A stretch of 64,000 nt of DNA from contig CP154954.1 of assembly GCA_039621445.1 (NCBI GenBank), forward strand, positions 8,496,634 through 8,560,633, given 5' to 3'. The DNA is from Euglena gracilis (lineage: Eukaryota). This document shows positions 1 through 64,000 of the stretch, in pieces; position 1 is the stretch's first letter; each line of letters begins with the position of its first letter. The position numbers and the translations under genes were made by a program. The notes beneath the pieces were generated by a model that worked only from the letters and a program-made list of their open reading frames with translations, did not search any database and had not been told where the DNA came from.

Positions 1-270
1 CACTGTTATGGGTTTCCCCGGAGTTTCATTGGAATTGAAATCCTCTGCAGTTTTGGGGAAAGCACAGAGCCAAACACATGGTTTCAAAGCAAAATGTCTC
101 GCCAATCTTGTTAATGTTTTTGCTGAAATGTCCAGGGTCCACTGCTGAGCTTTTCTCCTGGGTTTGGGCTTGCGGGAAAATCTTCTGCAGCATTTTGGGA
201 AAGCACAAAGCCAAACCCAAGATTTGGAAGCAAAATGTCTGTAAATGGGTCCACCAATCTTGTTCAAGAT

Positions 271-4119: not shown

Positions 4120-4284
4120 ATGACCACAACTGAAGAGAAAGCAGTGGTCTCCAAAAGCCAATGCTCTCCTCCCTCATCTCCCTCAGTGATGCGCTTCTCA
4201 GTGTACACAATCTATGTTGGGGCTTGCCTCTTGGCATTCTTGGCGGCCATCCTAAGTGGCGTTATCCTTCTCGTCTATGGAGGA
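4120..4284 (+). CDS. Probable first exon of the cyclase, N-terminal transmembrane helix
   Basis: ATG followed by the hydrophobic run [24 protein letters not shown]; 3' boundary uncertain. Confidence 0.5.
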
Positions 4285-7200
4285 ATTCCAAACAAACAAC
4301 CAACAAGTTTATTTGGACTAATTTGAGACGTCACCGGGGGATTATGACCACAATGCGGACCTCTTGAAACCACCCTGAAAAACGAGCCAATATCGGAAAT
4401 TTGGCCAATTTAAAAAAAAATTGGAAAATTGGATGGAAAGCCGATCCTCCAAAACGTCCAAATGTGCCATAAAACTTGCAACATGAAATAAGGGTCCCAT
4501 TCTACATCCATCGAAAGCTGGCCAGTTTTGGCCATGGGGTCATTCTTGCGGGGGGGGGACAAAGCTAGAGCCCCCAACCCATCGTTTCAAATTATTGTGT
4601 TCCAATATGGACTTGGGTGTGAGTGTGTGCCTGGGACAATTTCCATTGTGTTTGCATTTTAATTCCATTTCCCTCTGTTTTTTTCTTTGGGGGAGAATGG
4701 AAAGAAACCACCACCACCCCTTCAAAATGCACTGTGCTCCCCTCGCCCTCTAGTTCCGTTGTGCTTCATTTTTATGTAAATTCTGCCGGAATTTTTTTAA
4801 AATACATTTTTCATCCACTGCATCAGCACCAAGAAGCTTTCCCTTCGGTCCAAATCCTTCGGTCTCGCCGCCCACGTGCTTAGGCGGCCAAACTCGCACT
4901 TGAGGTTTTAATTTTTAGCTTGCGCTTTTGGCGCAAATTTCCAAACTTTTTTGAGACCCGGCGGTGAAACCCACCCTTTTGACCATCTGGTTCCCTCCAA
5001 GTCTCCAGGCGGAGACCCTCCATGGTGGCGTGTGCAACATTTGGCGATGTTGGGACCTGGGAACAGGCCCAATTTTGGTGTTTTTCAGCATGCGCACCAT
5101 TTTGAAAAAGGTTCAAAACCCTGGGTTTGAACGTCGGGACACGTGATCTTTCCAAAAAAGGGCCAAAACCCCCGTTGCGAGTCCCTTGTTTTTGAAGCCT
5201 TGACTGTGTTCCCCGGATGGTTCTACATAGGCTGGGTGTAGTTTGGCCCTTTTTGTTCCTTTTTTTGGGCTCTGCGATGTGTCCGTGAAGGGTTGCCTGC
5301 TGAGGCATCTAGAGGGTGGACTCTCCCACACCGCCGGGTACAGAAGGCAATGTTTATGGACATTGCGCTTAAGCGCAATAGTTTTACCTTGTGCTTAAGC
5401 GCAATGTAAAATTGTTGCGCTTAAGCGCATTTAACACATGTAACACAGAAGCCCCCTGGGCTTATGGCAGTCCCTCTGATGTTACGGTGTCATTGCGCCG
5501 AAGCGCAATGGATATGCCTACATAATGCAATGCTTGTTCATTCAGATTACACGTCAGCCGCTTGTTTGCACTTCTCATTTTTTTGTATGATGTTTTGCGC
5601 TTCGGCGCAACGTATTTCCTCACCCACTGGCCGTGCAGAGGGGGTCAAATAAGGGGGGGGGATCAAAAATTCCTTTAGAGAGAGGGCAAAAAAAATTTTC
5701 GGCGCCAGCCCATGAACAAAAAATTTCCCCAGACCCAAATGCTCAAGGGGGGGGGGTCAAATAAAGGGGGGGGTACCGTCACTTTCAAAGCTAATTGCGA
5801 GTTAGGCCGCCTAAGATGTGTGCAGTCCCACTTAGACCCAGCAAAAAAAAAATGGCATGAGCGTTATCTGCCAGCAAGCAATGATGGCAAAAAATGACAG
5901 GAAACCTCCATGACAGATGACACATTTGCGGGGCAGCAACGGCAGAGCGAGGATGCGCAGCTGACGGCCGGCCGGGGGCAGGTGCATGCCATCCAGGGCG
6001 TGATCCGCAACCAGATGAACCGCATGATGACCATGGCAGAAGAGGCCGACCATGCTCTTCCGAAGGGGTGGTTGCCCCCAGGCATTTCTTTTATGTAAAA
6101 ATAAGTAGGTTTGAACTGGTTTGGTTGGTCGTCAGAAGGGGGATTTGCACGGGGGAGGGGCATAAGGGTCTAAATTAGAAATCAAAATGCCCCCCTCCAA
6201 ACACCGGTTTCGTAAAAAAAAAAAGAAAACAATTTCAACGGTTAAAGAATTGCCAAAAGTGCTGTTTTCTATGACATTTCATCGCGCACAAAAATGCGAA
6301 AAATCTCACAGAAATTGTGGCCTTGGGGACTTCACCTATTAACAGAGTTTACCTTTGTAGGCCTTGTCTTCATTTTGCAAAAAAAAATTATTATCCAAAC
6401 TCCAGTCAAGGGTTGGGTTACAGTTAGCATTAGGGTTATCATCATCAGCATTTGCCCATGCACAACAGCGTTTACCCGTGGAAGGCTTGCTTCCCACACA
6501 CAAAAGGATTTTGGTATTGGGGTTGCGGGCGGGCTGCCGCCCCCCTCCCCCACCATGAGACTGTAGGCCAACCAAATTCGCACAAATATGTTGTTTAGAG
6601 ATAGGGTTAGGGTTCCAGACAGGGTTCAGGTTAGGCATGGGGTTAGGATTAAGGTAGGTGGCTGCCACAAAACCCAAAAAAAAAACTGATACCAAAAAAA
6701 TGTGAAAGGTTCAAAGCAAAAGTAATTGAAATGGAGTGCAATTTCTAAACTGCGCAAGGTCCTTTAATTTTTTCAGGGCGGGGAAAAATGCACCTCAACG
6801 TCGCGTCCTAATTTTCAAATATTTTGAAAAGTTTCAAGAGAAGCACATCAGCAGTTGCTCAAGCTGTCCCACAAATTTCCACTTGCAAACCCCAGGTGTC
6901 CCAAACTTTTTAACTCATGAAATAAATTTAAAGCCCTGACGTTGGGGATGCACTTATATGCAAATTCCAATGCGTAGAGGTGCTCTTTTGCTTAAGACGG
7001 CCTGACCAAATGGTTGGGCAACCTGGTCAACTGATTTGTGGGACGAAACTTTTGAAAGAAGGGGTGGTAGTCAGGCGTGCCAAGTGTGCGTCCAGCCACG
7101 TACCATCGTCAGTCATCACGGAGCAACTGAGAAGGGTTTGATCCTTTGCAGGAAACAGGAAACATCGGGAGGGTGGGTTATCTGGGTGGTGAACACAACC

Positions 7201-10200
7201 GGATCAGATTTAGGTGTTTACACCCAAAATCGTGGGACATGGCGGAATGTGCACCTTTGCATTTATACCTCTGGAACCTGCCCAATTTTGTGAATTCATG
7301 ACAAAGTTGCCCTCCTGGCTGTCTCAAGGTTTGGTTGAAGGTATTCTCAGATGATCAAACGTGGAAAATACCAGGAATTTACAATTTTTCAAGGGAATCA
7401 CTGTTGAGGTGTTTGGGCGAGTGGCGGATGGTTCTCAACAGAGGGGCGTGACTTCACGCGGCAACTGGTGATGCGCCTCAAGACCCTTCCCAACGCCACA
7501 CTCCTGCCCGAGAACGTCATCCCGGCGCTGAACGAAACCTTCTTCCCTGTTTGACCTGGACCCTGGCTCTGCCCTGCATGTTGAGAGCCGGCAATTTGCG
7601 AAAGCTTTGCAGCCTGGTTGTCGGCAGGCAGTCCAGGAAAACTGTTGATGTTTGCGTGTTTCTATCCTGCTACGTACCCCCCCCCCCCCCGACTTATAAA
7701 CCCCCGGGGGTTAATGGATCCGGTTTTGTTGGTCGGCCGAGGGGGGGGGGGCAAAATGACCCCGAAACCCCCCAAATTGGTAATTTTTGGCAAATTTGGT
7801 CAAAAATGGCATTTTTGATAATGGTAGGTGTCAATGGTGTCAATGGTAGTTGCCAAAAAATCAGTTTTTTGGGTGGTTTGCGGCCGAAAATATCGTCCCC
7901 GGCGGTTTTCATTTTTCTTCCCTGAAGGGGGGGGGTTTATAGGTCCCGGTTTGGTTGGTCGGCCCGAGGGGGGGTTTATGGTGGGGGGGGGTTATAGGTG
8001 GGGGGGGTTTATAAGTGGGTGGGTTTACCCTCCAGGATTTTGAACCTTTTTGAAAAAATAGAGAACCTTTTGGACAGCGATGCTGACATTAAACAACAAA
8101 GGTTTTAAATCTTTTGGACAAGGGTGTTGAAAAAGTTTCAAGGACCCTTACTCCATGAGTACAACTTCCGCGTTCTTTCAACGTCCCCGTGCAAAAGTTT
8201 CAATACAATACACCTGCCCAAAAGTCTCTCCAAATTGGCTAGAAGTTTTAACATCTCTGTCCAAAAGTGACAGTATTTTTGTCCAAGGGGTTCAGGAATC
8301 TTGTCCGAAAACTGTCAGGTGGTCCCAGGACCTCCCTCGCCTGCTCTACAGTAATTTTTTTTGACTTGGCGACGTGGCGAGTGTCGAAGAAATGCTCTGT
8401 GCAAAAGAAAAGAAAAGGAACGTAATGAATGATAATTGGAAAATAAAAAAATGAAAAAAGGAAAACGTTTGACGTCACAAGGAGGAAAGGAATGCTTTTC
8501 TTCAAAGGAAGGTTTTCCTTCAAAAGTTGCGAGGAGTCCAGTTTCTGGGTCACTGCGGTGAAGGCGAACAACTCTCTCAATGGTTATGGCTTGTCCATGA
8601 TATACAAGAACGCGACCCGGCTTCTTTTTCAATTCAAAAATCGCAACCTTTGGCTCGTTGTTAAAAAAAATGGAGCAAAAAGGAGCCCGTACAGAATCAC
8701 GGGGGCCCTGTACGACCGGTCCATTTGGGCGTTCTGGGAGATGTCAAGGACGGGTGCTTTCGATTACATGTATGGCTGGACCAGGCTTGTGCTTAGTCGG
8801 GTGCCTACCCCACGAGGGGGGGTGCTAGGGGCAGGCACCCCATAGCACCCGATCTGACCCCCCCGGGGGGGAAGGTTTTTGGGGGGGTGCCTGCCCATAG
8901 CAGGCACCCCCCTCCGACCCCAGCGCCAAAGGCGCCGGGTGCCCGGAAAAGGCCATTTTCAATGAAAATTTTCTGGTTCCCCCCGGACCCCCCCCGGGGT
9001 GTGCCTGCTAGGGGCAGGCACCCTATAGCACCCACCCCCCCCCCTTGTTGGTAAGCACAAGCATGGGCTGGACCTTGCCCGAGGATGGCCTGCTCCACAG
9101 CCAGGGGTTGGTCCTCCATTGTCATGATTGCCTGTGGAGGTGCCCAGTGTGAATTTCTAAAAGTTGCATAGCATGTTTAGATGCCATTGAAGCAAGTGTT
9201 GTCGAATCATCGTTTCTCAGTTTTGTAGAAATTCCCCAACAATTCTCAGTTGGTACGGAAAAAAAGTTGAAAGTTCTTCCTGCCTTGCCATATTGTTGTA
9301 GAATGTCGAAGCTCTGTTCGGGTTGCAGTTCGCATCGACCTCTGTGGCTGTCTTCCGCAATCATTGGCTCGATTTCGCCACCCCTCAGTTGGGGGAGGCG
9401 CTCTACACCGTGGATGTAATGAGTGTCACAACTGGGAAGCAATGGAACGTTCTGGCCAAGTGACTGCATATTGGGCAAGAGGGGAAAGTTAGTTTTAAAG
9501 ACGAGGTTGGGCAAGAGGGGAAAGTTAGTTTTAAAGACGAGGCACCTTTGCATTTTTCTTTTACGAAATTATTATCATTAAATTGATTTATTTTTGCTGA
9601 AAATTTCTTTGGACAATTTTTATTGAAAACGTTGGAGTTGATCAACATTCTAGGAGGATATCTTTTCAGGCAAACACAGACTCTTCCGACCAGCCCTCCG
9701 CCCAACGATCAAGAAGCACAATAATCACGAAAGATGCAAGAAAATTACGACAGATCACGAAAAAGCACAAATCAGAATTTGGGGTCCTCACCATGAAACA
9801 GAGGTAACCCCCCCCCCAAATATAAGACACCGGTGTCTTATATTTGGGTGTCGACCAATTTCGCCAAAGGGTGTCTTATATTTGGGGGGTGTCTTATATT
9901 TGGGTCTCAGGCGGATGACTGAGGGGTGTCTTATGTTTGGACACTTTTCCAGCAAGTATGTTGTTGTGCTAATGTCCTCGTACCTTCATATATAGGGTTT
10001 TTCTTCATGTCTGACGGGTCATCTTCCGACGCTTTGGAGAGTGTGTATGCTGAAAGCGACCAATCTGCAAGTGGTGATGAACTTGGCACAACGGACTGCC
10101 TCATTTTCTAGAAATTGGAAAATACGAACACTGGCACATTTGTCTGAACGTCATTCATCACCACTTGCAGATTGGTCGCTTTCTTGCTGTTCAAAATAAT

Positions 10201-13200
10201 AGATTCTCAACCTTGATCTGCTACACCCAAAAGCAGTAGACTGGACGTGCGTTAGTTGTTTTCATCACGCCTTGAGACTTGCTGCTGGGGACTGAGGAAG
10301 GCCTTTCGTGGGTGGTGTCTTATATTTGGAGAAGTAGGTGCCGGCCCAGGGGTGTCTTATATTTGGGGGGTGTCTTATATTTGGGTGTCGGCCCGAAAAT
10401 CCCCAAAGGGTGTCTTATATTTGGGGGGTGTCTTATAGTGAGGGGTGTCTTATATTTGGGGGGGGTTTAACCCCCCCAAAATATAATAACCTCCCCCAAA
10501 TACAACCCCCCCCCCCCAATATGAAACCCCCCCTGGGGCATTTGATTTGGTGACCAAATATAAAAACCCCCAAATATAAAATATCAGCTTCAGATCCATC
10601 ACCTCCTGACTCCTCGGATGCATCACCTCTGACTCCTCGGATGCTGCTGATTCAGTGGCCTCGGCGCTCAAAACGACCGAAATTGAGACATCAGGGGAGT
10701 CTCCGACAGGTATTCTTCCATTGGAAGCAACACAAAAGGGCTACGAGAGACATAAGAAAAAGGACAGAAGGTCGCCAGAAGTTTGTCTTCCCCCCATTTT
10801 TGAAACAGCCCCTCCAAATATACCCCCCGTGGGGATCTTGAAATTTCCGCCCAAATGTAACACCGGGGGGGGAGTCCCGCCAGGCTCCGGCCACCTCCAC
10901 GCACACAGACAAAATGAGCCAGAGGCGAACAACAGCGCCAGGCCAGAAGAAGGGATAAAAGGCACCAAAAAAACAGCCACAGTGCACACAGGGGGGGGTT
11001 TTATATTTGGGGGGTTTATTTGGTAACTCAAACTAATTCAACCTAAAATGATCAATAATTTTAAAGCATGGTTTTTCGGTTTCTGCAGGTGCAGCCAGGA
11101 AAATTTAAGGTGTTTGACTGTGCCCAAACAAAACAGGATGAAGGAGTGAGGAAGGAGAAAGCTGTCTGGAGGAATGTCGCTGGTTTAAGCTCCATGTAGC
11201 CGGGGGACTTTGGCGGTTTAAAAGTAACTGGACAAAATCTCTCCAGGTGTTGCAATTCCTGTAACCCCCCCCCCCCTAATAAGTGCACGGGTGCGCACAT
11301 TTTAAGGACGTAGTTTTGGACCCCAAGGGGTGCGCACTTATTAGGGCAGTGTGCACTTTTTAGGGCAAAACCAAAATACTGACGTTACCCCCACTCTTTT
11401 TCCCCCCAATTTTGGGATTTCAAGCTATGAGTCAAGTGATTATGTGTCAAATGTGTCAAATTTGGGCTTGGGCGATGGAAATGTTTGATCTGAGAAGGAC
11501 AATTCTGAGAATTGTGTGTGCTTTCCGGCCTGAGATGCGACAATGATTTCTCCTTTGGGGGGTGCGCACTTTTTAGGGAGGTAGTTTCAGACCCTTGGGG
11601 GGTGCGCACTTATTAGGGCACTGCGCACAATTAGGGCACTGCGCACTTATTATGGGGGGTTTAGAAAGGACGTTGACGATGGCTGCAGTTCCAGGAAACA
11701 GACCACTTGTGCTTTTGTTCATTTTTTTTTTTAGCGATTCAAGACATTTGCTCAATCCAGCAGGTCTCCCCATTGGCAGCACACATTTCGGTTTTCTGGG
11801 TGCTGGGGAGGGTACCAGAAAGGGTTGGGACTGGGACTTTTCATTTTTTTTTGCCTGAACATTTGTGCTCTTGTCCGCTTCAATCATTCACCACTTCCCT
11901 GAACGCGTTCCAATCCTTCTCGAATTTTGAACTCCTCACATGCAGTTCGTACAAAAATGATGGGAGAAAAATGAAGATGAACATCATTTTTTTCGCCTGT
12001 ACCCTTTCTATGCCCCTTTTCAGGGGTAATCAAATGACGCTGCCATTTTTGCAGGAAACCTTATCACCAGTGGGGAAAGTACCAACATTTTCCATGAAAA
12101 GTTGAAATTTCCCTCATTGATTTTTCCAAAACAGGATTTTTTTTATATCATTTTTCTTTGTCCTTTCCCCCCTGTCATTTTCGTTCCCGTCGTTTTTGTC
12201 CAGACTGTTTGCTGCCCTGCTGCCCGTAGCTGATCGACCTATACAAGAATGACGACTTCTTTTACTACGCCATCCCGTGGGCGGCGATGGATGGCAACTC
12301 CTACTGGTACTTTGTCTACATGCGGGCCATCCAATACCACGGTGTATGGTTCAACCTCCAATCCTGGGATGTAGACCTCCTTCAGGGCTGTTTGGTGGAT
12401 GGGACTTGATCGGGTTTAATGGGGAGGGCACAAAATATGGAAAGGCAAACAAACTGAACAACTGCAACAAATAGCTGAACACAAACACTGCAAAAGGTAT
12501 AATGAGATTTATTTTTGATTCCAATTTCATCTTTCTGTGTTCTACTCTGTTTGGATTTGCTCTTGTAACGTCGCCTGCCCATTGTGCCATTGCAACCACC
12601 CCTGTGGGAATCAAAGATTTCTTGTTCCTGTTTTTTTTTGTGTGTGTGACTTTCGTTTCATATGTTTTGTACAACGTTTTTTCAGCCACATCGCCATTCT
12701 CTAATCCACAGTTTTTTTTTTGGAGTTGTGTCATGAATGGACAGCCTTATTTTCCGCACCAAACATCCCTGCTATCACCTGGTTGAGCCTGGTCAGAGGG
12801 TCTGCCAACCAACTCTTTCATTCTTTGGTGGCTAATTCAATTAATTTTTCTGTCTTGCCTCTTCTCTGTCTCTCACAAAGTCACATGAATCCCCTCCGTT
12901 TCGCCTTCCATTGTCATGCTGAATGATTGTCATGCTGAATGATGAACCTAACCCATCTATATTAGATACCCTCCAAAGGCTGCTTGGGGTTGGTTGCTGC
13001 CCATTTACCCCATCTGTCGTGATAGTTTATACTGGACAAATGATTGGTCGAACACCATCTTTCAGGGAGCTTGGGAGGGTCACAAATATGGTCAATGCCA
13101 TTGCGGAGGTGTACGATGATTGGGAAGAGTGATTGTGGATAATTTATACCCCCCCTCAATAAGCCCTCCGGTGAGATTTTGGCAACGTCGATTGCAGCAC

Positions 13201-15320
13201 TGTTATTTTTGCATGCATTTTAGCTGAAATTCACTGCTCGGGTTGAATCCTTGGTGTTTTGTTTGTAGGAGGAAGAAGGGTGCTAAAAAAGGGGACCCCA
13301 ACCAAGTAATTTTTGTCACTGTAAAGCCACCCACGTGACAATTTTGTAACAAATTGGACTGTTTGGTGCGTGGGATAAACTGTATGGGGGCATCATACAA
13401 CGTGGGAGACGGGGTGTCGCTTTGACCGTTCCCCCTTTGGCCCTTGGGGGGGGGGGTCCAGCCAGCCAGCAGCTTTTTTCCATCCTCAGACCTTCCACAC
13501 GTCCACGAGTTTTATTTAAGGGCGGGATGGTGACAGATTTCTTGGGTTTTGGGTGGTGCAAAATGGGCTAAAATGGGCAAAATTGGGCCAGAAAGTGCTG
13601 GTCACCTCAAATTTATGGTCAAAATGTCGATTTTTTGGATATTTGATATCTTTGGGGCCTTTGCAGTTTCGATCAGATTTTGGTCCCTGGTTCGACCCTG
13701 GGTCTTGCTAGTTCAGCCGGGCTGCCCCTATGGGGGAGGGATGTGTTCAGCCAGCAGTTCTTTTTTTCCGCGCCAGCCCAAATTATCCGCCTCGTTAACT
13801 GACACCCCCCTGGAACATGAATGATCTATATTTACCCCACAACCCCATGCGTTGGGATGATCAATCATGATCAAAGCAGTGGTCCAGGTGTGCTGCATGA
13901 GACGACCAGTCCTGCCGGTGAAGTCAGTGTCGTCAGTGAAACCACCGGGCCCACCAGCAGAACCGAAGCGAACAGAACCGGTCGCGGATGGCGCAAACGG
14001 CCACGCGCGCCGCCGTGAGGTTGGGATGCGTTGGCGCCGCCCTGGGGCCGATGCAGAACGGCCTGACCGCTGGGGCCAATGTGGTCGCGTTCGACAGCCG
14101 GGGCTACGTCATGACGGCCACCAATGCGCCCGAGCAAGCCCGGCTGAAGAACTGCCTCGCCTCGGGCAAACCCGTGCTGGCGTGTGTCACCTCTGGCAGT
14201 CCAACCTTACCCCACCCCTTCCCCAGGCTTGTGTTTGTTTTGTCTATTTGGCAATTTTTTTCGTGGCTGGTGATGCTTGTACAATGTCTTCCACCAATCA
14301 ACAATACCACACCATAGCAGCCTTTGAAAAAATGTTGTCGCACTGAGAAGAAGCCTTCGAAAAATTGACCCCCTCAGCACCACCCCTGTTCCATGCCCGC
14401 ATTTTCCACTGCATAGCCAAGGGGCGGTCCCTGTGCGTGCTCCATGGGTGACAGAGTCCGGAGTTTGAGATCTGAACCTGGAACCAAGAGATTATTATTA
14501 GGTTTGGTTTTGTTTGGTGACCCGGGGCAGGCCATTGCTCAGGACCTTGGGGGGGGCCAATTTGCTGGACACCGAAAAAAGCCACTTGCTCCACCTCCGG
14601 GGGGGGGGGGAGTCCGGGAGTCCCCCGACTGAATAAAAAATTTCCTCCGCCGCTGTGCGCCGACTCAGAAAAGAGGGTTTTAATGTTTTTTTCCCTGCTG
14701 ATTTTGTTCTTTAAAAAAGCCCATAAATGTCCAATAATGGCCATTTTCGGCCAGTTTTTTGGGGGTCAAAAATCGGTTTCGCGCAGTCACTGGAAAATAT
14801 TTTTTTCCACTCAGCTAGCTGTGTTAGCAGACCCCCCTGGGGGTCCACTGGGATTTCCAAATCTGGACCAGCTGCAGTCCAGCTCCCCCCCTGGGTTTCG
14901 GGTGCTGCAAACCCTTAAGCAATGGCCTGACCCGGGGAGGGAGGGAGGGAGGGTGGGTGGGTGGGCGGGCCTGGCCTCGCTGCCCCCGGAGGCAGGTTTC
15001 CCTCTATTTGGAGTGGAAGCACTCAAGAATTTTGACCCTCCCCACCCACAAAAGTGGGTTCCCCAGAGCCTCCCCCCCCCTGTGGTTGGGTCTGGGTCCT
15101 AAAAAATTCTTCCAAGGAGGGGTGGGGTTTCCAGGCCTCCCCTCCGTGACCCCCATGGACGAGATGGACTTCCTGTGGGTTGCCCGACCCCAACGGTGGC
15201 ATTTTGGGGGCTGACTGCGCTGCATCAGGCTGCACTTGCATCAGCATCCCAGCTAATCCAGAGGACTGCCATCATGTCCCACCAAAGTGGCTGACATCCA
15301 AATGCATGCGTGTGTGCGTG

Positions 15321-15404
<84 letters not shown>

Positions 15405-18400
15405 CGTGTAATGTGGTGGTGTGGGTGTGCATTTGTACGCATGTCTGTGGGTGTGCGTGCGCCTGAAAATCAGAATTCGAGCGCAAATGCTCAGCTGTTA
15501 AACACAATATTTCGCATTGCCATTACACTACAAAGCGATCGGCCTCTTTTCTTTGCGGCCCCCTGCCATCAGCAACACCCCGTTGTGGAAATCTGGGACG
15601 TGTACACCTCCCTTCACACCCCAGAGTGGGATGCACTGCAGTCTCCGGCTCCCGGCTCCTCATTTTGTGTCCAAAAACCAAAAAGAAAAACCTGGGCTTG
15701 ACGTTTTTAGCGGACGGGCGATGGTCCAGAGGCGCGAGAAATCACTTTTCCCACCAATGTCAACTCGGTTTTGCCAAACTATGGAAGTTTTTTTTGCAGG
15801 TTTTCCTGTGGATTTTTCATTAATATCCCGATCTCCCGCTCCCCACCACTGCCAGCTCCTTGCAAGTGGCAAAATTCTGAACCTTTGGTGCCCCCCCTCC
15901 AGACCTGTTTTGGCCACTGCTGGTGTGCCGCCCACGATTCCCTCGCAACAGGCGGAGCTCCAACTGTCTGGCAAGCGGTATATGGCGATTGTGGCCACCC
16001 TGTTCTCTGGCAGGGGTTGCGTTATGGCGTATTGGCAACTGGCTGACGGTGTGGTCCTTTGCACGTGAACTGTCACTTTGGATTTTCATTCGCGTTTTCC
16101 AAACCCCAGGGATGGTGCACCCCAACAGTTTCAACCAGGACCCCCATTTCACTAACCTAGTACAATGAGAAGGTCAAATCAATCAACGAGAATTTTCCTG
16201 AGCAAGTCGATGTCACCATTCAAAGTCGCAACCAATTCAGCGTTTTTTCCTTTTGACCCATCTTGAGCCTGCTTATTTACCAACTCAAAAAACTTGATTG
16301 CCTTCGAGATCCTTGACGTGGTCGTATTTCTCTTCACCAGCTCCGCTTCAAATTCGGACCCCAACTTCCTGATGTCAGGTCTCGTTTCAGGAAGAGATGC
16401 CAGTCTTTCCTTCAACGCGGCATTCGCTTCCGTCACCTCCTCGATCTTCTCTTGATAGCTCGATAGATCAGTCGATGACATCTTTGTCGCCAACAGGGAC
16501 TTTATGGACACTTCTTACTCATCTGATTCATAGTCCTCTTCTTCCACGCCAGTCGCTTCCATTTCTTGCAACTCGGCTGCCTTCACTTTGAGTTCTTCAT
16601 CTTTTCTTTGATAGAGAGGGTTGCTTGGACCTTTCCAAAGAGGATGAGGAACCAAAACCAACCTTCGTGAGCTTCCCCTGCGCTTGTCGCGTGAGTGTGT
16701 CGATGTAGCTTCTGATTGAGTCCACCTCTGCCTTCTTCATCTCCACATCTTTTGCTTTTTCCATCTCTCTCCTTGCAGCTCTCTCCTTCTTTTCCCGTTC
16801 ACGGCGAATCCTCTCTGATGAAGCTTGTAGCCTTAGGTTCTTTTCCAGTATCAGCTGGGATGACTCTTTGGTCATCGTGCAAAGGTTGAAGAAAACATCA
16901 GACTCGGAGAGACAGTGCCCGCTCAAGGCACTCGCAAAATACGATGCTGATGCCTCTGCTTGACTCCTGGAGGGCTGTTTCTGAAAGGAGGGCATCAGGG
17001 TTGAAGGCTGATCCATGAAGTTTGGGGAAACTGTCTGGAGGTCACGTTGACCTGTTGCAACAACAATAAGCCTGGGGGGCTTGGGGTTGTCTGTGTGTGA
17101 TGTGCCGATGACCCGTAGGTGTCTTCTGTCTTGAAGCCATTCAAGCTTGCGATGAACACAAATCGCTCGGGTCTGAGATTGATGATGGAACTTGCGAGAT
17201 TTCTGACACCTGCAGGATCGATGGTGGGTTGTAATGCAACAATGGGGCAGTGAACCCAGCATCGACAATCATCCTGCATATGTCTGTGAATGATCCGTTC
17301 GTCCTGACGTTCACTTGTTTTGAGTTGAGACCTGTCACTGGGATGTTCTTCAAGAAAGTCTTCAGTGACTGGACTTGGGAGAGCGATCCACACATTTCAA
17401 TGCACCCTTCAGGATTGTAGTGAAAACGTGCCACATTTTCAAATTCTCCTATGAAATGAAAGAATTGTGAGGTGTGGGAAGCAAAATGTTCCATTTGCTC
17501 TCTCGTCATGTCATTCACTTGACTGGCGGTTGTTTTAATCATTTCAATCGCCACTTGCAGTTCAGGGATCAGAAGTTCGATTATTCTTGCAATCTGTGGC
17601 GCGCACAAACTGAGGTCTTCCGGCTCTACGCCGTGGGATATTGGCCTGATGAGTGATGCAGTTAGAAATATGCCTGGCGTTGTATCATTTCTCCAATTAA
17701 ATTCTTGCCAATCTCGTGAAGCTGGACTCTGTAAGTGTTCTCGGAAGTCTTCTGCTTGTGTTTAATAGGACTCCAGATCGACTTCACCATACGATTCATC
17801 ACCCTTCACTGGCGGAGCAGTGGCTATCCTGCATTTTTCTCTCCATTTCTTCTGCGGCTTGGATATTTTCTTCATGCTGCTTTTCAGCCCTTAGACGAGC
17901 TGCCTTCTCCGCTTCAAGGCTCCTTTTTGACTCAATTGCAGAACGCACATTTTCAGCAGTTGATTCCGCACCTGTCCTCTTTAATTTGTGCTCATCAGGC
18001 TTTCATTTTGCAATTGGCGCAAATTCAGCTTGGGATTTTGCCTTAGCCTTGAGAAGATCTGAGATTGGTGTTGACATTTTTGGTCAGTTGGTTGGGGTTG
18101 GTAAGTGCTGGTGGTGTGTCCGTTATTCAAAGGCGATTCCTGGAGGCGTGCCGTTGAGAGGGTTGGTGTGGAGGGGAGGTGTAGGAAGTTGAAGTGGCCC
18201 CCTGGTGAGGAAAATTGTGTTTTTCATTGTTAATTTCTTGTTTCCCACAGCCAAAATGATGCCGGCACAGGCCATTGTGGGAGCTGAGGATGGCTTGGGA
18301 CGCCCACCCCCAGCGCCTTTGACTTTATGAAATCCCTAAAGAAAAAATAATCTGCGGATATGGTGACCGACTTGAATGCGGATAGAGTGTCAGTGGAGAG

Positions 18401-21400
18401 TTGGTGGGAGAAAGGTGGTTGGTTGGTTTTGGGCGTCCTTACCTTCTCAGACAAAGATGTGCGCAGCTCCGCGAACTTGCCCGCAAAGCGACGGTATTAC
18501 CCACTGCAATCGGGCGAATGTTTAGGCTGCCACTGAGGCCGTCCTTCCTCCATGGAATCAGGGTGGCCGATGAGATGAATGGCATGGCTTGTGATGGCAG
18601 TGGCTGCTTTGGAGAACGTACACAGCGCTGCCAACACCATTACTGCTGCAGCGGCGTCCACGCGCACTACATCCTGGAGGTGCTGGGGTCGGAGTCCATC
18701 TGGGCCTGCAGCAGCCGCTCTTGGAAAAGAGAGAAAAGTCTCACAGAGAAATTTATTCTAGTCATGTTGCTTTTGGGAGGATTCCTCCTTTGGGAGCAGA
18801 AACACTTTGGAGATGGGATCCACACAGATGACTTCTGGCCTTCTTGGATGCAAGTCTCTCATCTTGGCCTGCACCTTGGAGTCCAACAGGTCGTGCAACC
18901 CATCAGACATTGAGATGACGCATTGCCTTGCTAGATGCTCTATCTTCCATCAAGCCCCGCAACGTGTTTAGGAATGGGGCAGCCTGTCCACTTTGGTATG
19001 TTCAACTGCGAGTGCAAAGGATCTCGCGGCATATACAGTGTTTGTAATTAGGAGTGACCGTGGGGAATTTTGGTTTGATGTTGCAAATTTCAGATTGATC
19101 TTTCTCAAAAGCATGGAAGGGGAAAACCAAGGTATCATAAACAAGTTGCAGTTGAGATTTTGCTGCGATTTTATCACCAGACAATTTCGTTATTTTCTCA
19201 AGCTAGCTGCAGTGATTCTGTGAGATTTTTAGACCATCAGATAGCGCTTGAAAAGAGCTTTCAATTAGTGTGCAACAACATAGGTGAAAGCCAAGATTTA
19301 GAGGTGTTCAATCGAGGAAATTAGCACACAAACATAAGTTGAGCAACAGGCTTTGGGCAATCAAAAAACGAACTCGATGGAATTTGGTGAAGAGGAAAAC
19401 TGCGGAGTTTCCTACCACGCGAACTTTGTCAGCAACCAAACCAACGGAAACTGGTCCACTGAACTTCGAATATCCCTTGTAATTCAGTCCTCGTATGAAC
19501 TCTCATGTATCTATTTTTTTGACATATCACATGGCTCAGAACTGAACTGCAGGCTATATGTACGGTGGTGGGGCGAGGGCACAGAACTGAAAGCCCCAGA
19601 ACTGAAAGCCCCCGGTGGGGTTCAAGTTACAAGTTCAAGGTGGAAGGCTTACCAAGTGCATGTTATCAGGACAAGTGTCATGTTCAATATTTACTGGCTT
19701 CTTTGCTGGTGGTATTTGCAGGTCCTTTTCTGCTGCAGCAGTTCAACTGGCTGTTGACTTTTGAGGTGGCTTGAGGTGAAATGAACTTATTGGAAGGATA
19801 TTTATCTGGATTTGAGCACGTCAATGCTAAATTGCTCCATTTTGTTGGGATTGGCCAGACTGTGTATTTTCTCATTTTCTGTTGCTGTTCCCAGAAACTC
19901 GAAGGTTTTTGTTTGTCTGTCCATTTTGTTTGCAACAAAATGGTAATCTGGGTCATTTTGATTTGCTTTACAATGGTTTGAACCATTTTTTTTGGTGCCC
20001 CATCTTGGGGCCAGTTTTGGGGCCACACCTTTGGGCCAGTTTGGGGCCACTGGTGGTGGCCAGTTTTGGGCCAGATGTTGTGGTTGGTACTGGATTGTAC
20101 CACCCACCATATATGAATTCACCCCCAATGTAGAGAACCCCCCCCTGGCGACTGAATGCAGAAACCCCAAAGCAAAATTTTTACAACATATAGGCATTAC
20201 AGTAACAAAAGAAAGAAAGAGAACGGTAAATTCACTGATGAAAAAACATGAGGTAATAGGTGCTTTAACATCAGTCAATCATTTGGCTCAGCTGCCTCGT
20301 CTGGGTACAGGAACAGTGAGGCAAAATCATGTCCCTTTGAACCCCCCCTGTTTTATTTTGGAGAAAAATTTGTGAATCAGAAATCAACCACTTTTTTTTT
20401 GCTGAGCTTCTGGAAGTTTGCCTGTGCTTTTCAATGAGGGAACTGAAAAAAATTCAGTAAAATGCAAAAAAGAGTCAATGAATGAAAATGCAATCAATAT
20501 TTGCCAGCATTTAGGCATTTTTTTGTCATTTTTTTTGGGGGGGGCATTTTTGACCATTTTCCAGCCATTTTTTGGTCACATTTAAGTGAGGTTTTATGAA
20601 AATGGGAGTGGGAAACCAACAGAAGTCGATAATCATGGTAGCAAGAAACATGGTAAAATTTAGTGGCTCTGTATTTTGAAATGCGCTGCAAAAGTTGAAT
20701 TTTTTTTGTCAGAGAAGCTTTTTATAAATCATTTTCCGAAGATGTTGTCAACAAAATTTCCACCGGTTCCACATTGGAGCAATGAAAGCATGGTCGAGAT
20801 GGTCCTAAACTAAATATCACAAAACTTCGAAAGTAGTGGTAGTCGGTGGTTCAATAATATTTTTCACCGAATATGGACCCCCCCAGTTCTATCGGCTGCC
20901 CGGCATAATTGTTTGGGGTGCAAATATTTCAGGGGCTTCCAGAAGGGGGGGGATGGAAGTATTGACCCCTAAAATACTGCACATTCGGGAGAGATGTTGG
21001 TATATTGAGATATTGCAGCGGCCCCTCATCCAAAGATAATTTCCGCATCACCATCGTGTGGTATCAGCCTTGGGTCGTCACTGGCATCCACTCCGTGGAA
21101 CTCACGGCACTCATCTGCATCCTGCCCTGGTCGTTGCCCAACGACCGAGGGGAGAATACACAGCATGACCTTTTGCTTTTGGCTGGTGGCTGATGCGGGC
21201 CGTCTCTACCTGGCCATTCAAGCATTCAGTTTTTACGAATTTCTTCTATGAAACACATGGGAAAAACGTGGTTTTAGGAAAGTGCAGGGAAACATGGCAT
21301 GGGTTTGCCAAACCCCAGTGTGTTCCTTTCTGCACCTCTCACGGTCAATTCACGGCCAGCAGATACAATTGCAGTTTGGAACTTCCGGGTGCAAAATGAC

Positions 21401-23689
21401 AAAATGGAGAGGGGTATGCCCCAGCCAGGCTGACCAGCTGGGCAACCGGGGGGAGGGGTTTCAGGGGAACCCTGGAAACCGCCCCCCCCCCCTCCTTCCC
21501 CCAGCTCTGCCAACCCAGGGCCGGGAAGGAGGCTAAATTTTATGCGGTGCTGTTTCCAGTATGCGCAGGAGCAGGATTTAATACAGTATTTTCAATTGAA
21601 TCATAATTTTCACCTTCCAGCCTTGTTCATTTTCGTGTGTGGTGTCTCCCTGCCAGCGTGCTGACTGGAGGCAACCCACCCAATAAGAAGCTGTTATTTG
21701 TTTGTATGTTCAGCGGCCGGGCTCTGACCATGCTATCAACCTTTGTAGCCAGGACACCACGCTGGTCCAGACAGGAAAAAAGATGGTTGGCACTGGTTCT
21801 GCGGTTTTCTTCAGCTTTTCTGTTGATTGTGCCCTTGTTGTTGTTCAACATTACTGCATCCGCGGCTTTGGGGTTTTGGTGAGGATTCCCCTCCCGTTTG
21901 TGACTTGCGTCAAATCCCAATGTTGCGCAGACCCTGCGTCAACATTTTTATGCCTCTGCACTATGCCCAAACTCTGAGGTCCCTGGGTTTCAACTTTTTG
22001 GGATGCTAATTCTTCCAGAAATGGGCCACCGCCCCCGTGCTCAGTCCCACGTTTTTTGAAGCCTTCATTGTGGCTTCGAGATAGTGTTGTACAATAGGAA
22101 ACCACCCAGATGAAATGGTGGGGGGCGGATGGACAGTTCTACTGTCCACTGTGCACCTAGACCACCATACACACCGCACAATGACCCACAAAAGTGGGCC
22201 CCCTCCCAGTCAGTGCCAACCCCCAAGGTCCTGAAAGAATCTTCAATTCCCTCTCCTGTGTTACCCCCCCCCCCCAAATAGAAGCCCCTCCCCCCCTCGG
22301 GTTCCCCGCCCAAAAAAACAACAACCAAACAACAGCCCCCCCCCACAACCAAGCCGACCGACAAAGTTGACCAAATTTTTTCCAAAAAAAAATGGTGAAA
22401 ATCTCGAAAAATCTCCATGGAAACAGGTCGAAATCGGAAACAAAAGTGATATCTGGCATCTTTGAAACATGGCCTATCCACCCAAAACTCGGAAAAATGC
22501 GTCATGCAATTTTTTTGTTATTATTTTGGACCCCGTTCGATCTCCAGATCGGCCGCTGGCCGAAGGTTTTTCCTTTAGACAAAGGGTACCCAAAGAAGAA
22601 GCCCCCCCCACCCTCTGCAGAGTGACCGAATAGTAGCCCCAGGGGGCTTCTAATTGGGGGGGTTATGATGTGTAGGGCAAAATCCACGCCAAAACCCAAC
22701 TCCTCCCAAAAATATGGGCGAGAGGTGAGGGAGAAGTCTGGGGAGAATCATCGACTGGGTCCATTTTTTTTTAATTCTGGGCTGGAAATGGGTTAATTTT
22801 TGACTGGGGAAAATTTATGATAAGGTATAGTATGCCCTTGCCCCCCTCCCCCCGACCTTTCCCCTTCTCCCGAATTTTCAGCTGTCTACCTGTCAATTGA
22901 CAGTCTTCCGTGGGCGATGATGTGGTTTTGCTTTCTTTGGTGGGAGTGTGGGAAGGCATTTGGAACAGTTTCACAGTGGTTTATGCACACAAATGACTTT
23001 TTGAAAAAGGTAGGTCTATTGCGAACTCTCGCACAGCACAAAAGGTCAATTCACTCCCTTCACAGGCCCAGATTTCGTCTTTGTTGGAAACAGGCATGAT
23101 GGGCCAGTCTGGTGGGTTGTGGCTGTTGGCCGACCAGTTACTCAATTCCATCCACTCACATCCAAAGCTACTCCAAATCTCGGGGGGGGGGGTGGAATGA
23201 GCATTTTTCAAATCACTTTTTGGGTGCCCAAAATGTTTCGTCAGGTTTTCTTTTTGCTACCTCCTGTTTTCTTTTTCCTTCAGGAATAAAACCCCCAAGT
23301 TTTAAAGGGTCCCTCAGGCATACCTGAGGGAAACTTTTAAAGGGTCCCTCAGGCAAAATGAGAGGGAAACCATTGTGCATGTTGGTGAAAATTACCCAGT
23401 TTAGATTTCAACATTTGTTTCATTTGTTTTCTAAGGCAAATTTGCACAATGGAAAAGAAAAACTTTAATTTCGACATTGGTGCAATGATTGCACAATTGT
23501 ACAACGGTTGTCTATTTTGAAGTTATTTTCCTGTGAACGGGTCCACCGTTGGAAGTTGTCACCTCAGCCAGTATTCACTGATTTTGAAGCTTTTAAGTCT
23601 GTTAGCTTGTTTCAGCATTGATTTTGTGGAAGAAATAATATATTGTTTTTGTGTTTTTTGTGTACAAAAATTCATACAACACCTTTGGT

Positions 23690-23722
<33 letters not shown>

Positions 23723-24715
23723 TTTTTTTGTTTTTTTTTTTGACATCTTTTCATTTTCCTCTTTTCTGCAGGTTTCGTCTTTTGCAGACAAAAAATTCAT
23801 ACAACACCTTCTTTTTCACGGGAAATAATTTTCTTCTCAGTGGCACTTCCCTTGCAGAGGGAGGGGGGCAGTCTGCCCTGCCGCCGCTCACGCTGCTGGG
23901 CGTCTTCGGGGTGCTGCGACCGCTGACAGCGTTGGGGCACGCCATGCGGGCAGTGGCGCATGCCCTGAAGGAGGGCAGCGGGGAGGGGGAGGCGGTGCTG
24001 GCGCCACGGCGGCCCAACGTGTTCCGGGAGCACCCCATTGCCTCAGGCAATTTGCCTGGCGGGCCGGAGGCACACCGGGCACGGAAGCCGCCAGAATTTT
24101 TTTTGAAAATTCTTGGGCCAGAATGCATTGAGTTTTGAGCCGTTTTGACCTGAGTGGCGGGAGTGACCCCGGGGGGGGGTCAGATGTGAGTGAGTCCTAT
24201 TGGTTTTAAAAGTTATGAACGGTGTTTTTTTTAAAGGCTGAAAATGGCCACTTGGGTTGGTATACTCCGGGCCTTGGGGGGTTGGTGTGCTCCCGGAACC
24301 CCCCCCCCCCGGAGGTCCGGAAGCAGGGATGGCCAAATGTGCTCGCCTGGCTCTGAAGTATAAAAAATATCAAAATTCATTGCCTTTGAGTCATTCTGAC
24401 CAAAATGGCCAGAGTTGCCGACCCCGCCCCCCTTCTGGGTTTGGAAGTGACTGACTGGCTTTGAAGCAGTGTGGGCTAGTTTCTTTTTTTTGAATGGCGA
24501 CCCTTTGGGGGTCGGTTGGCAGTGGTATGGCGGAGAGGTGGACACCATCGGACAGGACTTCGAGACCATTGTGGTGGACTTCCTCGGCTTCTCCAGTGCC
24601 GGCTGGGGGAGGCAGGAAAACGGCCGACAAGAATGGGGATTGTGGTCAAAGGGAAACCAAAGTCAGTCAATCGTTTTATTTGTGTATATTTTTGGAAATT
24701 ATTGTAACTTTGCAC

Positions 24716-24759
<44 letters not shown>

Positions 24760-36397: not shown

Positions 36398-36441
<44 letters not shown>

Positions 36442-43800: not shown

Positions 43801-44226
43801 GTGGAGTATAATCCCCAAATTTCAAGTGGTTGGTGTGCGCATTTTCGCACATCAACCAGTTGTGTTTGCATATTGCTGGTGTGCGCTGATGTGCACACCA
43901 GCTTTATACAAATACATGAGCGGTCAATGTTCACTAAAACACACACCAGCCGCGCCGCTTACACCGAATGAAAATGTGTGGTTAGTGTGCGCAAATGCGC
44001 ACATCAACCCTTACTTCATGAACTTGTGTCATGTGAGTGTTCGGGTTCCTACAATCCCGCTACTGGGGGGGTCATACACACTCCACAACCTACAACTCCC
44101 GACCAGGGGAGTGTGGTGGGCCAGATCGGAGGATCGGGGGTGCCAAAGATTAAAAATCTTACTCAAGGGGGCAAAGGCCAGCCGACACGCCGCGACCCCC
44201 ATGGCGGGGGCGGAGGGACAACACAG

Positions 44227-45390
<1,164 letters not shown>

Positions 45391-45412
45391 GGTTTACACC
45401 TCACGATACATG

Positions 45413-45768
45413 TAAACCCCCCCCCTCCCACTTATAAACCCCCCGGGGTTTAATGGATCTGGTTTGGTTGGTTGGCCGAAGGGGGGGGGGTTTATAGGTC
45501 CCGGAATTGTTGGTGAAGATCCGACCCCCCAAAATGACCCTGAACCCCGAAATTGGCAATTTTTGGCAAGTTTCGTCAAAAATGGCATTTTGTTGATGGT
45601 CGGTCTCAAAAAATTGCCAAAAAATCAGCGTTTGGGTGGTTTGTGGCCGAAAAAAATCGTCCCCGACGGCTTTGTTTTTCTTCCCCGGGGGGGGGGGGGG
45701 GGTATAGGTCCCGGTTTGGTTGGTCGGCCCGAGGGGGGGGGGTGTTTGTAAGTGGGAGGGGGGGTTTA
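45413..45768. mobile_element. TA-flanked MITE, family A
   Basis: Similar along its length to 7675-8027. Confidence 0.8.

Positions 45769-52502: not shown

Positions 52503-64000
<11,498 letters not shown>

Follow-up and report, generated by a model that had tools for sequence, protein, structure and literature searches.

A high-copy inverted-repeat element together with one 8-bp duplication as a probable nonconventional intron of a Euglena gracilis cyclase gene

Background

According to Nomura et al. 2025 (PMC12501133), the nonconventional introns of euglenids follow the code 5'-N3CDG...CH'GN5-6|R, in which the spacers of 3 nt and 5(-6) nt and the pairing of the intron ends are experimentally required. 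The same paper reports that any single change within the CAG or CTG of a test intron abolished splicing, that nonconventional introns represent 71.8% of the introns of E. agilis, and that 38.8% of these nonconventional introns are off the strict code. Their excision yields circles and may bypass the spliceosome (reviewed in PMC11282704), and the literature covered here still treats both their origin and the mechanism of their removal as unknown. A MITE origin has been a published hypothesis since 2014, based on inverted ends and 'TSD-like' repeats whose length is unstated. In addition, a strain-specific intron with eight-nucleotide direct repeats is present in gapC of E. agilis, and Milanowski et al. 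2016 (PMC4770533) interpret these repeats as the outcome of double-strand-break repair. A statement that the two spacers (3 + 5) equal one TSD, or that these introns carry an 8-bp TSD, was not found in the accessible full-text literature; it may already be contained in Datasets S7-S8 or the figure on sliding distance of PMC12501133, or in Table S3 of PMC4770533.

Introners, known from Micromonas, Aureococcus, dinoflagellates and Fritillaria, are spliceosomal introns derived from MITEs (PMC11282704, where Huff et al. 2016 is cited as a source). They are removed by a (sometimes modified) spliceosome; one of the two splice sites belongs to the element, and the other is co-opted from a duplication of 3-5 nt (PMC11282704). 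An intron made by the maize element Ds is attributed to Giroux 1994 in PMC3935182, and E. gracilis is reported to have two families of Merlin in which the DDE motif is intact and the TSDs are 8 bp long (PMC8101967).

The window analysed here is a stretch of 64,000 nucleotides of E. gracilis DNA (assembly GCA_039621445.1, contig CP154954.1, positions 8,496,634 to 8,560,633). We consider it probable that a MITE was inserted into an exon of a cyclase gene in this window and is spliced as a nonconventional intron together with exactly one 8-bp TSD. The overall interpretation of an earlier note on this DNA, which proposed such a system, is largely supported.

Anatomy of the element and its flanking repeat

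The element, E1, is a 284-bp non-autonomous TIR element of MITE-like appearance at 8782-9065 on the plus strand, and it forms the body of intron 1 in the mapping of the transcript-derived protein P0003. The earlier note had given exactly this size and position with 14-bp TIRs; both are correct, but the arms match at 13 of 14 positions and not at all 14. The left arm (8782-8795) begins CAGG, while the right arm (9052-9065) ends ...CATG instead of ...CCTG. Perfect copies of an octamer had also been noticed on both sides, and these are indeed present: GGCTGGAC stands at 8774-8781 and again at 9066-9073, an exact 8/8 repeat. Its full extent is 9 nt (GGCTGGACC), because the first C of the element equals the base following the right copy. 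The flanks match at 8/8 for k = 8 only, with 0-4 matches for k = 3-7 and 9-13.

As the N3...N5 convention places it, intron 1 spans 8779-9070 (plus strand, 292 nt) and is composed of E1 and 8 flanking nucleotides, with nothing else. The first 5 nt of the left copy would then be exon and its last 3 nt intron, and the first 5 nt of the right copy intron and its last 3 nt exon. Removal of 8779-9070 restores the reading frame, as had been claimed for a cut 3 nt before and 5 nt after the element; the cut positions, however, are one of ten equivalents, since all cut pairs from 8774/9065 through 8783/9074 produce the identical mRNA. With such a slidable intron, the 3 + 5 cut is unreadable from the sequence of E1 alone, and the actual cut sites would lie there by analogy with the published code. 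GT/GC-AG borders are absent at all ten positions.

The only TIR mismatch falls on the third base, which gives the right end ...CATG and makes the triplet at -8..-6 ATG, not CTG, in the window's own allele. The expected CAG at +4..+6 is present, but its supposed CTG partner is replaced by ATG, so that G faces A in the third pair. Behind the CAG, the arms are complementary over 11 consecutive bases, and in the minimum-free-energy RNA fold they pair and bring the ends of E1 together (-176.5 kcal/mol, z = -4.68 against 100 shuffles). The exon that follows starts with a purine, G at 9071. E1 is too short for a transposase gene; the longest stop-free frame that overlaps it has 123 codons (8805-9176, minus strand) and extends into the right flank.

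Compared with the euglenid nonconventional introns described by Milanowski et al. 2014 and 2016 and in PMC12501133, E1 has the same non-GT-AG borders, the CAG at +4..6, the 11 paired bases and the exon purine, and like them it has borders that slide through a direct repeat and is absent from the transcript-derived protein. It differs from the published introns in its 3' ATG triplet and in that the whole intron is one member of a repeat family plus 8 nt. Moreover, the full 8-mer at E1 sits exactly outside the CAG/triplet pair, and the accessible published papers do not link the repeat to the 3- and 5-nt spacers. The likeness to introners consists in a short TIR element in an exon, apparently excised with one copy of its duplication to leave an unscarred mRNA, and in families that multiply; unlike introners, E1 offers no possible GT/GC-AG borders, has a duplication of 8 nt, and would be cut at distances measured from its paired ends. 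With hAT MITEs and Ds/Ac it shares the 8-bp duplication, short CAG(G) TIRs, small size and lack of coding capacity, whereas a target consensus is not evident, the TIR cores vary, and no hAT transposase was found in the window. In contrast to the maize Ds-type intron, its removal from RNA would proceed without cryptic GT-AG sites.

Related elements in the window

Elements of the same build were found at several other positions, and eight members including E1 belong to a class with TIRs of at least 12/14 and an 8-nt flanking repeat of at least 7/8, the ends being CAG in five, CAT in two and CGG in one. E0 (935-1362, 428 bp, TIR 13/14, CAT...ATG ends, ATGAACTC 8/8) is situated some 2.8 kb before the first paralogue-mapped exon of the host gene, and E2 (14528-14929, 402 bp, TIR 13/14, ACCCGGGG 8/8) is nested in intron 6 (14159-15191). 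Further members are E3 (41750-42037, 288 bp, TIR 13/14, flank repeat 7/8), E4 (55179-55482, 304 bp, TIR 13/14, GTGGGGGT 8/8) and E7 (59721-60180, 460 bp, TIR 13/14, CAT...ATG ends, GGGGTGAG 8/8). The geometry of E1 had been said to recur at 57560-57848 and 58885-59200, and both sites proved to hold an element: E5 (57563-57843, 281 bp, TIR 12/14 ungapped, GATGTGAT 8/8 within a full repeat of 11 nt) and E6 (58888-59195, 308 bp, CGG...CCG ends, 11 perfect TIR bases, flank repeat 7/8). E8 (33262-33697, 436 bp, GCCTGGAC 8/8), nested in intron 21 (30379-33861), has TIRs decayed to 12/17. A transposon that lands anywhere should also leave copies in older introns and in non-coding surroundings, as is seen here. 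As the window is GC-rich, the continuity of open reading frames across these other elements is uninformative.

A scan for TIR pairs of at least 12/14 with arms 40-3000 nt apart, from which three simple-repeat zones were excluded, returned 1557 pairs. Flank repeats of at least 7/8 occurred in ten of them at k = 8, in four at k = 7 and in two at k = 9, while the average over eight dinucleotide shuffles was 1.0 hits at k = 8 (range 0-3). The unmasked count of 81 includes satellites and is not comparable with the shuffle mean. Seven of the ten hits at k = 8 are E0-E4, E6 and E7; E5, the eighth member of the class, was dropped from the scan by the low-complexity filter. The remaining three fall outside the class: 5364-5507 has a palindromic arm, 29056-30852 spans exons, and 42404-43838 lies within a hairpin-repeat region. 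An arm pair 2.9 kb apart (5110/8046) was likewise rejected as an element, having a repeat of odd length and enclosing mapped exons. In the comparison of offsets proposed in the earlier note, run here within the window, flank identity has its peak at 8 nt both in each of the strong elements and in the window-wide scan, which does not refute the note's reading.

The elements fall into families whose members share their bodies but carry different flanking duplications. E1 and E4 are 66% identical over 286 nt, E5 has internal blocks in common with both, and an E1-related fragment lies at 47.43-47.61 kb; E2 and E8 are 71% identical over 413 nt in opposite orientation. The copy number in the genome is high: in the DNA run X1, word depth reached 498,272 in the 667-base bin 8300-8966, which includes unique left flank besides E1 sequence, against about 190 in unique bins (~2600x). 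In addition, six RNA reads of run X24 match solely to the right of the element's start at 8782, while their left parts differ from one another. The intron body thus has the dispersed relatives that the earlier note called for. The TIR cores differ among the relatives E1, E4 and E5, although within each element they are complementary, between a conserved CAGG and TTA; this would be unusual if one transposase binds the ends.

Superfamily of the elements

Transposases of the hAT superfamily have BED/DDE/hAT-C domains, and hAT target sites follow the consensus nTnnnnAn. The window elements have the 8-bp target duplication of this superfamily, and their CAGG-type ends presumably resemble hAT ends such as those of Ac, which speaks for hAT. 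The consensus itself is poorly represented, with T at position 2 in 3/10 and A at position 7 in 5/10 duplications, and none of the 22 stop-free ORFs of the window that were scanned reached a curated Pfam cut-off, so that no transposase was found among them. It is possible, though in our view doubtful, that the mobilising transposase belongs to Merlin (IS1595-like) or another superfamily that duplicates 8 bp, and not to hAT or P. The Merlin families reported from E. gracilis occur in the same organism and have TIRs and 8-bp duplications as E1 does, but Merlin ends have a conserved terminal 5'-GG-3' (PMC8101967), whereas the window elements end in CAG, CGG or CAT, and an ORF of the IS1595-type DDE kind was not found in the window.

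Host-gene introns and the 3 + 5 geometry

The host gene encodes an adenylate/guanylate cyclase (Pfam Guanylate_cyc) and, from the mapping of P0003 and P0004, extends over at least 33 kb (4189-36827, plus strand). P0003, the 700-aa transcript-derived protein EG_transcript_1068 of E. gracilis in EukProt, maps to 8768-36827 in 25 exon pieces, and three exons further upstream (4189-4272, 5919-6044 and 7438-7551) are indicated by its paralogue P0004. For the frame to the left of E1 (8447-8779), word-index searches for homologues were empty and a full scan gave two spurious tandem-repeat proteins only; a paralogue of the host gene was detected only through a different exon.

Not one of the 24 introns mapped here can have GT/GC-AG borders. 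Fifteen conform to the published code N3-CDG...CHG-N5|R, two more (introns 10 and 17) fit with N6 alone, and 7/24 are off code; intron 6 resembles 4 + 5. The 8-nt repeat is retained only by introns 1 (8/8) and 19 (7/8) and perhaps by 23 (5/8), the other 21 introns scoring 0-4 of 8, which limits the generality of the pattern. Intron 19 (28760-29245, plus strand) is confirmed by P0003 and contains an element at 28763-29240 with CAG...CTG ends, its repeat standing in the same k = 8 register as that of intron 1; the like geometry claimed for this site thus stands, except that its TIR is weak. When introns 1 and 19 are left aside, mean flank identity is 0.33 at k = 8 against 0.21-0.31 in other registers, a weak peak. 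CAGG/CCTG ends are common to the elements and 11 old introns of the gene, and five of the 24 intron bodies have relatives in the window, two of these solely through the nested E2 and E8.

In the reading that we prefer, a high-copy non-autonomous TIR transposon (MITE) would have been inserted into a coding exon of the cyclase gene, and this transposition would have duplicated 8 bp. The inverted ends of E1 would pair in the pre-mRNA, and the euglenid machinery would measure off 3 nt ahead of the 5' CAG and 5 nt beyond its 3' partner triplet, these distances and the need for end pairing being those of PMC12501133. Because the two spacers sum to 8 nt, the element would take precisely one of the two duplicated octamers with it, and the mRNA would regain its pre-insertion sequence. 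The ends form a palindromic pair, which would make an insertion spliceable from the start whichever way round it lands. Old introns of the host gene would have kept CAG(G)...(C)CTG ends while mostly losing the repeat.

This reading would account for the tolerance of such insertions in coding sequence, and it provides a reason for the sum of 3 and 5 nt, although not for the split. It offers a concrete case in which an identifiable high-copy element, flanked by a perfect 8-bp duplication, makes up one whole intron in an expressed gene, with the same type of element also found outside exons, and in which the length of the duplication is the sum of two experimentally fixed spacer lengths. The hypothesis of a MITE origin thereby becomes countable, as it predicts a peak of flank identity at 8 nt and a repeat that decays with intron age, and further predictions are empty sites with one 8-mer and an autonomous element with CAGG ends. 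The case also bears on the rise of intron-rich genomes without GT-AG splicing.

How the match between offsets and duplication length arose is a separate question. One explanation, which we hold to be on the unlikely side, is a filter: the geometry would be set by an RNA-processing enzyme, and only CAG...CTG transposons with an 8-bp TSD would survive in exons, so that the match would be uninformative on the origin of the splicing machinery. This accords with the 3' spacer tolerating 6 nt (PMC12501133), with the N6-only introns 10 and 17 and the 4 + 5 resemblance of intron 6, and with the absence of the repeat from most old introns. On the other hand, the shared CAGG/CCTG ends of elements and 11 old introns fit common descent either way, and the direction of causality is undecided by the data.

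Alternatively, splice offsets and duplication length may be evolutionarily matched, or tuned, to each other. In its full form, where the 3 + 5 rule exists because it deletes one target duplication and exon insertions in either orientation are born as working introns, we regard such co-adaptation as quite improbable. If it were true, selection on the element would act through the hairpin of its RNA, which would explain the complementary but different TIR cores of E1, E4 and E5 between CAGG and TTA, and the transposon's mobility might be tied to the circle released by excision (the element with one rebuilt 8-mer) or to the enzyme that excises it.

Removal of the element from the transcript

The N-terminus of P0003 requires the left flank of E1 joined to its right flank, with the element and one copy of the repeat missing, although only two residues (M and Y) stand to the left of the ambiguous repeat. 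The paralogous proteins P0004 and P0008 are colinear across the same junction, and the position of E1 within coding sequence, claimed in the earlier note, is thereby upheld by P0003 and its paralogues. At the DNA level, the site is occupied in X1; the paralogues are colinear as proteins only, and empty-site DNA was not seen.

Could the insertion be real but unspliced in the window allele (null or leaky, given the ATG), with P0003 derived from an empty-site allele or a recent duplicate? Seven of the 700 residues of P0003 depart from the window sequence, so this protein comes from another genotype. Since every single change in CAG or CTG abolished splicing of the published test intron (PMC12501133), the window allele of E1 may splice poorly. 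Three raw RNA runs and X1 were aligned to 8300-28299; RNA depth there was at most about 3, 845 of the 903 aligned RNA reads matched only partly, and the best 15 of 218 joints, all from the DNA run, included no joint or back-joint over E1 from RNA. Against this stands the genotype of X1, whose SNPs at 15586 and 15594 are non-synonymous and yield exactly residues A157 and R160 of P0003. Its contigs cross both junctions of E1 at single-copy depth, one running from the left flank into E1 and ending at about 8803, the other from the E1 interior (start about 9039) into the right flank, and no branch occurs at 8782/8783. As X1 shares the SNPs of the transcript and carries E1 in its DNA, removal appears to occur at the RNA level, and the transcript-derived protein speaks against the retained element or doubled repeat that the earlier note had named as a refutation. 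Off-code introns are, furthermore, common, both in E. agilis (38.8% of its nonconventional introns, PMC12501133) and in the host gene (7/24), and we consider an unspliced E1 very unlikely.

Finally, it is barely credible that the 8-nt direct repeats result from double-strand-break repair or another intron gain independent of a transposase, as in the published reading of the earlier gapC case (PMC4770533) and as the lack of an identified transposase among the 22 window ORFs might suggest, given that the repeat length is constant at 8 across 10 loci, that the adjoining inverted ends start with CAG, CGG or CAT, and that shared bodies occur with different flanks, at a word depth thousands-fold above unique sequence, in introns and upstream of the gene.

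An intron of the adenylate cyclase gene

The element E1 (8782-9065) lies in a coding exon between two perfect 8-bp copies of GGCTGGAC at 8774-8781 and 9066-9073, with 284 bases between them, exactly as the earlier note had described; the direct repeat is really 9 nt long, as the first C of the element recurs past the right copy. When k, the assumed length of the flanking repeat, was varied, the flanks matched at 8 of 8 positions at k = 8 and at 0-4 positions at k = 3-7 and 9-13, which agrees with the proposed 8-nt offset. The arms of the 14-bp terminal inverted repeats (TIRs) are complementary at 13 of 14 positions. Their third base is mismatched, so that the 5' end reads CAG and the 3' end ...CATG, and the triplet expected to be CTG at -8 to -6 is ATG in the window.

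The left frame (8447-8779) looked coding, with a codon-position GC of 0.35/0.42/0.60, and protein searches with it returned nothing usable. With the cyclase-like exon 28601-28759 as query, the transcript-derived protein P0003 was found (EG_transcript_1068, 700 aa; EukProt EP00667, Euglena gracilis), which contains a Guanylate_cyc domain at residues 325-491 and maps on the + strand to 8768-36827 as 25 exon pieces, differing from the window at 7 residues. Its N-terminus is the left flank of E1 fused to the right flank, while translation of the unspliced sequence from the right-arm ATG would give a protein without the Y. The paralogues P0004 and P0008 are colinear across the same junction; further upstream, from 4189 on, P0004 identifies additional exons. 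Taken together, the N-terminus and this colinearity indicate that E1 plus 8 nt is one whole intron, and the host of E1 is an adenylate cyclase gene that spans 33 kb or more. The introns of this gene range from 154 to 5023 nt in length, and its exons include micro-exons of 15, 24 and 33 nt (12777-12791, 21724-21747 and 26918-26950).

Just upstream of E1, the stretch 8615-8695 corresponds to 27 residues (relative to P0004 and the paralogue P0006) or 24 residues (P0008) that are absent from the paralogues and present in the open frame 8447-8779. Its arms are complementary, its ends are CGG...CCG and the pattern N3...N6|A would describe it; another nonconventional intron, in frame and 81 nt long, is probable here.

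Removal in DNA or in RNA

As the genotype of P0003 differs from that of the window, an empty site could in principle have been its source. In unique stretches, approximately 1-2% of positions differ between the public DNA run X1 and the window (e.g., 29 of 1788 letters), and the RNA runs agree with X1; thus, the strain or haplotype of the window is not that of the runs or of EG_transcript_1068. At 15586 and 15594, where the RNA runs agree with X1, the X1 changes yield exactly A157 and R160 of P0003. One X1 contig has its differences at 8552 and 8697 placed 251 and 106 letters before its terminus, which puts that terminus at about 8803, 22 nt inside E1. A second contig has differences at 9105, 9119, 9214 and 9256, at distances of 66, 80, 175 and 217 letters from its end; its start accordingly falls near 9039, with 27 nt of E1 included. 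Both contigs have single-copy depth. The matching residues and the contigs entering E1 thus indicate that the genotype of the transcript carries E1 and that removal takes place at the RNA level. The predicted loss of E1 and one repeat copy from the transcript is therefore borne out by the P0003 N-terminus, together with the presence of E1 in DNA of the matching X1 genotype. No RNA joint over E1 was found among the best 15 of 218 joints, and RNA depth over the gene is at most about 3, so that the raw RNA reads do not themselves confirm this removal.

Splice rule and previous reports

According to the available text of a knock-in study (Nomura et al. 2025, PMC12501133), nonconventional splicing uses a 5' spacer of exactly 3 nt and a 3' spacer of 5 nt, with 6 tolerated; requires the CAG and CTG triplets and approximately 12 paired bases behind them; and prefers a purine as exon start. 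In E1, CAG is followed by 11 paired bases, the downstream exon starts with G and the RNA fold has z = -4.68, so that E1 departs from the published requirements only in the C of its 3' triplet. For an element with CAG...CTG ends and an 8-nt duplication, the N3/N5 rule would remove the element plus 3 + 5 = 8 nt. The repeat probably arose by transposition, and the splice rule and the repeat may have been matched by selection.

In the portions available, a MITE origin of these introns was proposed in 2014 (PMC3935182) and repeated in a 2024 review, with 'TSD-like' repeats of unstated length (PMC11282704), and in 2025 (PMC12501133; PMC12621601); PMC12501133 merely suggested MITE-like sources and set aside 'slidable' direct-repeat introns. 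A strain-specific gapC intron of E. agilis was reported with 'eight nucleotide direct repeats', ascribed to double-strand-break repair (Milanowski et al. 2016, PMC4770533, available text); these repeats are independent support for the transposon reading. Merlin elements with 8-bp duplications are reported from E. gracilis (PMC8101967), and PMC11170887, as far as available, adds nothing on repeats. In the full-text literature searched, to which supplementary data may add, we found neither a statement that the spacer sum equals the duplication length nor a description of a MITE family constituting a nonconventional intron.

Our analyses confirmed the sequence observation of the earlier note and support the core of its interpretation, namely that E1 is a transposon-born intron whose excision does without GT-AG and, by the splice rule, takes one copy of the 8-bp duplication with it. 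Transposon-born introns as such are already known. Circular intron RNA has reportedly been treated by Gumińska et al. in 2021.

Elements of the same class in the window

Five more elements, recovered by searching for complementary arms that end in C[AGT]G...C[ACT]G, also have flank identity at k = 8 only. A motif-free scan (14-nt arm pairs matching at 12/14 or more, 40-3000 nt apart, three simple-repeat zones excluded) gave 1557 arm pairs, with a flanking repeat of at least 7/8 in 10 at k = 8, 4 at k = 7, 2 at k = 9 and 1 at k = 11; the matches at k = 6 and k = 10 were the same loci, symmetrically trimmed or extended. Eight block-wise dinucleotide shuffles gave 0-3 matches at k = 8 (mean 1.0); the unfiltered real count of 81 in the shuffle run includes satellites and is not comparable with them.

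Seven of the ten k = 8 matches form one class: E0 (935-1362), E1 (8782-9065), E2 (14528-14929), E3 (41750-42037), E4 (55179-55482), E6 (58888-59195) and E7 (59721-60180). E5 (57563-57843) also belongs to it, though removed from the scan by the low-complexity filter. These eight members are 281-460 bp long and start with CAG (5), CAT (2) or CGG (1). E8 (33262-33697) has an exact 8-mer and decayed arms (12/17), and in the fourth locus of the earlier note (element 28763-29240) the arms are weak and the repeat is 7/8. The would-be first exon base, position 6 on the + strand, is a purine in 8 of 10 8-mers.

The other three k = 8 matches, a palindromic arm, an exon-spanning pair and a hairpin-repeat region, are not of this class. 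A GCGCA(A/T)TTTCGCACATCAACCA-like motif, with dispersed copies and hairpins at 42390-43860, was the source of one false TIR-plus-repeat match. An inverted pair of approximately 17 nt (AAGGTTCAAAA.CCTGG) at 5090-5125 and 8030-8060, 2.9 kb apart, has a flanking repeat of 7-11 nt; it is not a simple element, because it encloses the P0004-mapped exons 5919-6044 and 7438-7551.

The alignment of E1 with E4 shows 66% identity over 286 nt. Both have internal blocks in common with E5, and the family has a further, inversely oriented match in a fragment at 47.43-47.61 kb. E2 aligns with E8, which is oppositely oriented, at 71% identity across 413 nt. These related bodies with unrelated flanking 8-mers indicate separate insertions rather than segmental duplication. 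The summed word depth in X1 contigs was 498,272 for the bin 8300-8966, which comprises the left two thirds of E1 plus the unique left flank, versus approximately 190 for unique bins. In six reads of the RNA run X24, the match to the window begins at 8782 and extends rightward only; their left parts differ, which places the family boundary at the first TIR base. E2 lies within intron 6, E8 within intron 21 and E0 approximately 2.8 kb upstream of the first mapped exon, so this element type inserts outside exons too.

TTA occupies left-arm positions 12-14 in E1, E3, E4 and E5. In the arms of E1, E4 and E5 (8782-8795, 55179-55192 and 57563-57576), CAGG and TTA are constant and the intervening 7-8 bases differ, these differences being matched by changes in the partner arm. 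Such varying cores would be unexpected if one transposase read the end sequence and expected if the hairpin counts.

The 24 introns of the gene

Every cut position reproducing P0003 was enumerated, intron by intron. GT/GC-AG was impossible in all 24, and 15 have a position fitting N3-CDG...CH'G-N5|R, two fit only N6 and seven, including E1, have no strict fit. With the introns anchored at +4 and -6 and the 8 nt outside each end compared, the repeat was 8/8 in intron 1 (E1), 7/8 in intron 19, 5/8 in intron 23 and 0-4 of 8 in the other 21. Mean flank identity at k = 8 was 0.38 (0.33 without introns 1 and 19), versus 0.21-0.31 in other registers. A clear 8-nt repeat is thus confined to the apparently youngest introns, the rest being at or near background. 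Eleven old introns keep the CAGG start, as in E1-E5, and relatives in the window exist for only five of the 24 intron bodies, in two cases owing to the nested E2 and E8.

Very high-copy repeats at 9634-11634 and 27643-28299, in introns 3 and 18 (X1 summed word depth 130,000-830,000), inflated old introns. Intron 21 contains a GC-rich satellite at 31000-32600 with units of approximately 10 nt (GCCGCGGCCG-like), which floods inverted- and direct-repeat scans. Long CA/TG-type and related microsatellites occur at 36200-36450, 44000-45450, 53700-55000, 56400-56800 and 60900-61300, recognizable by HTHT/VCVC frames and extreme GC and AT skew.
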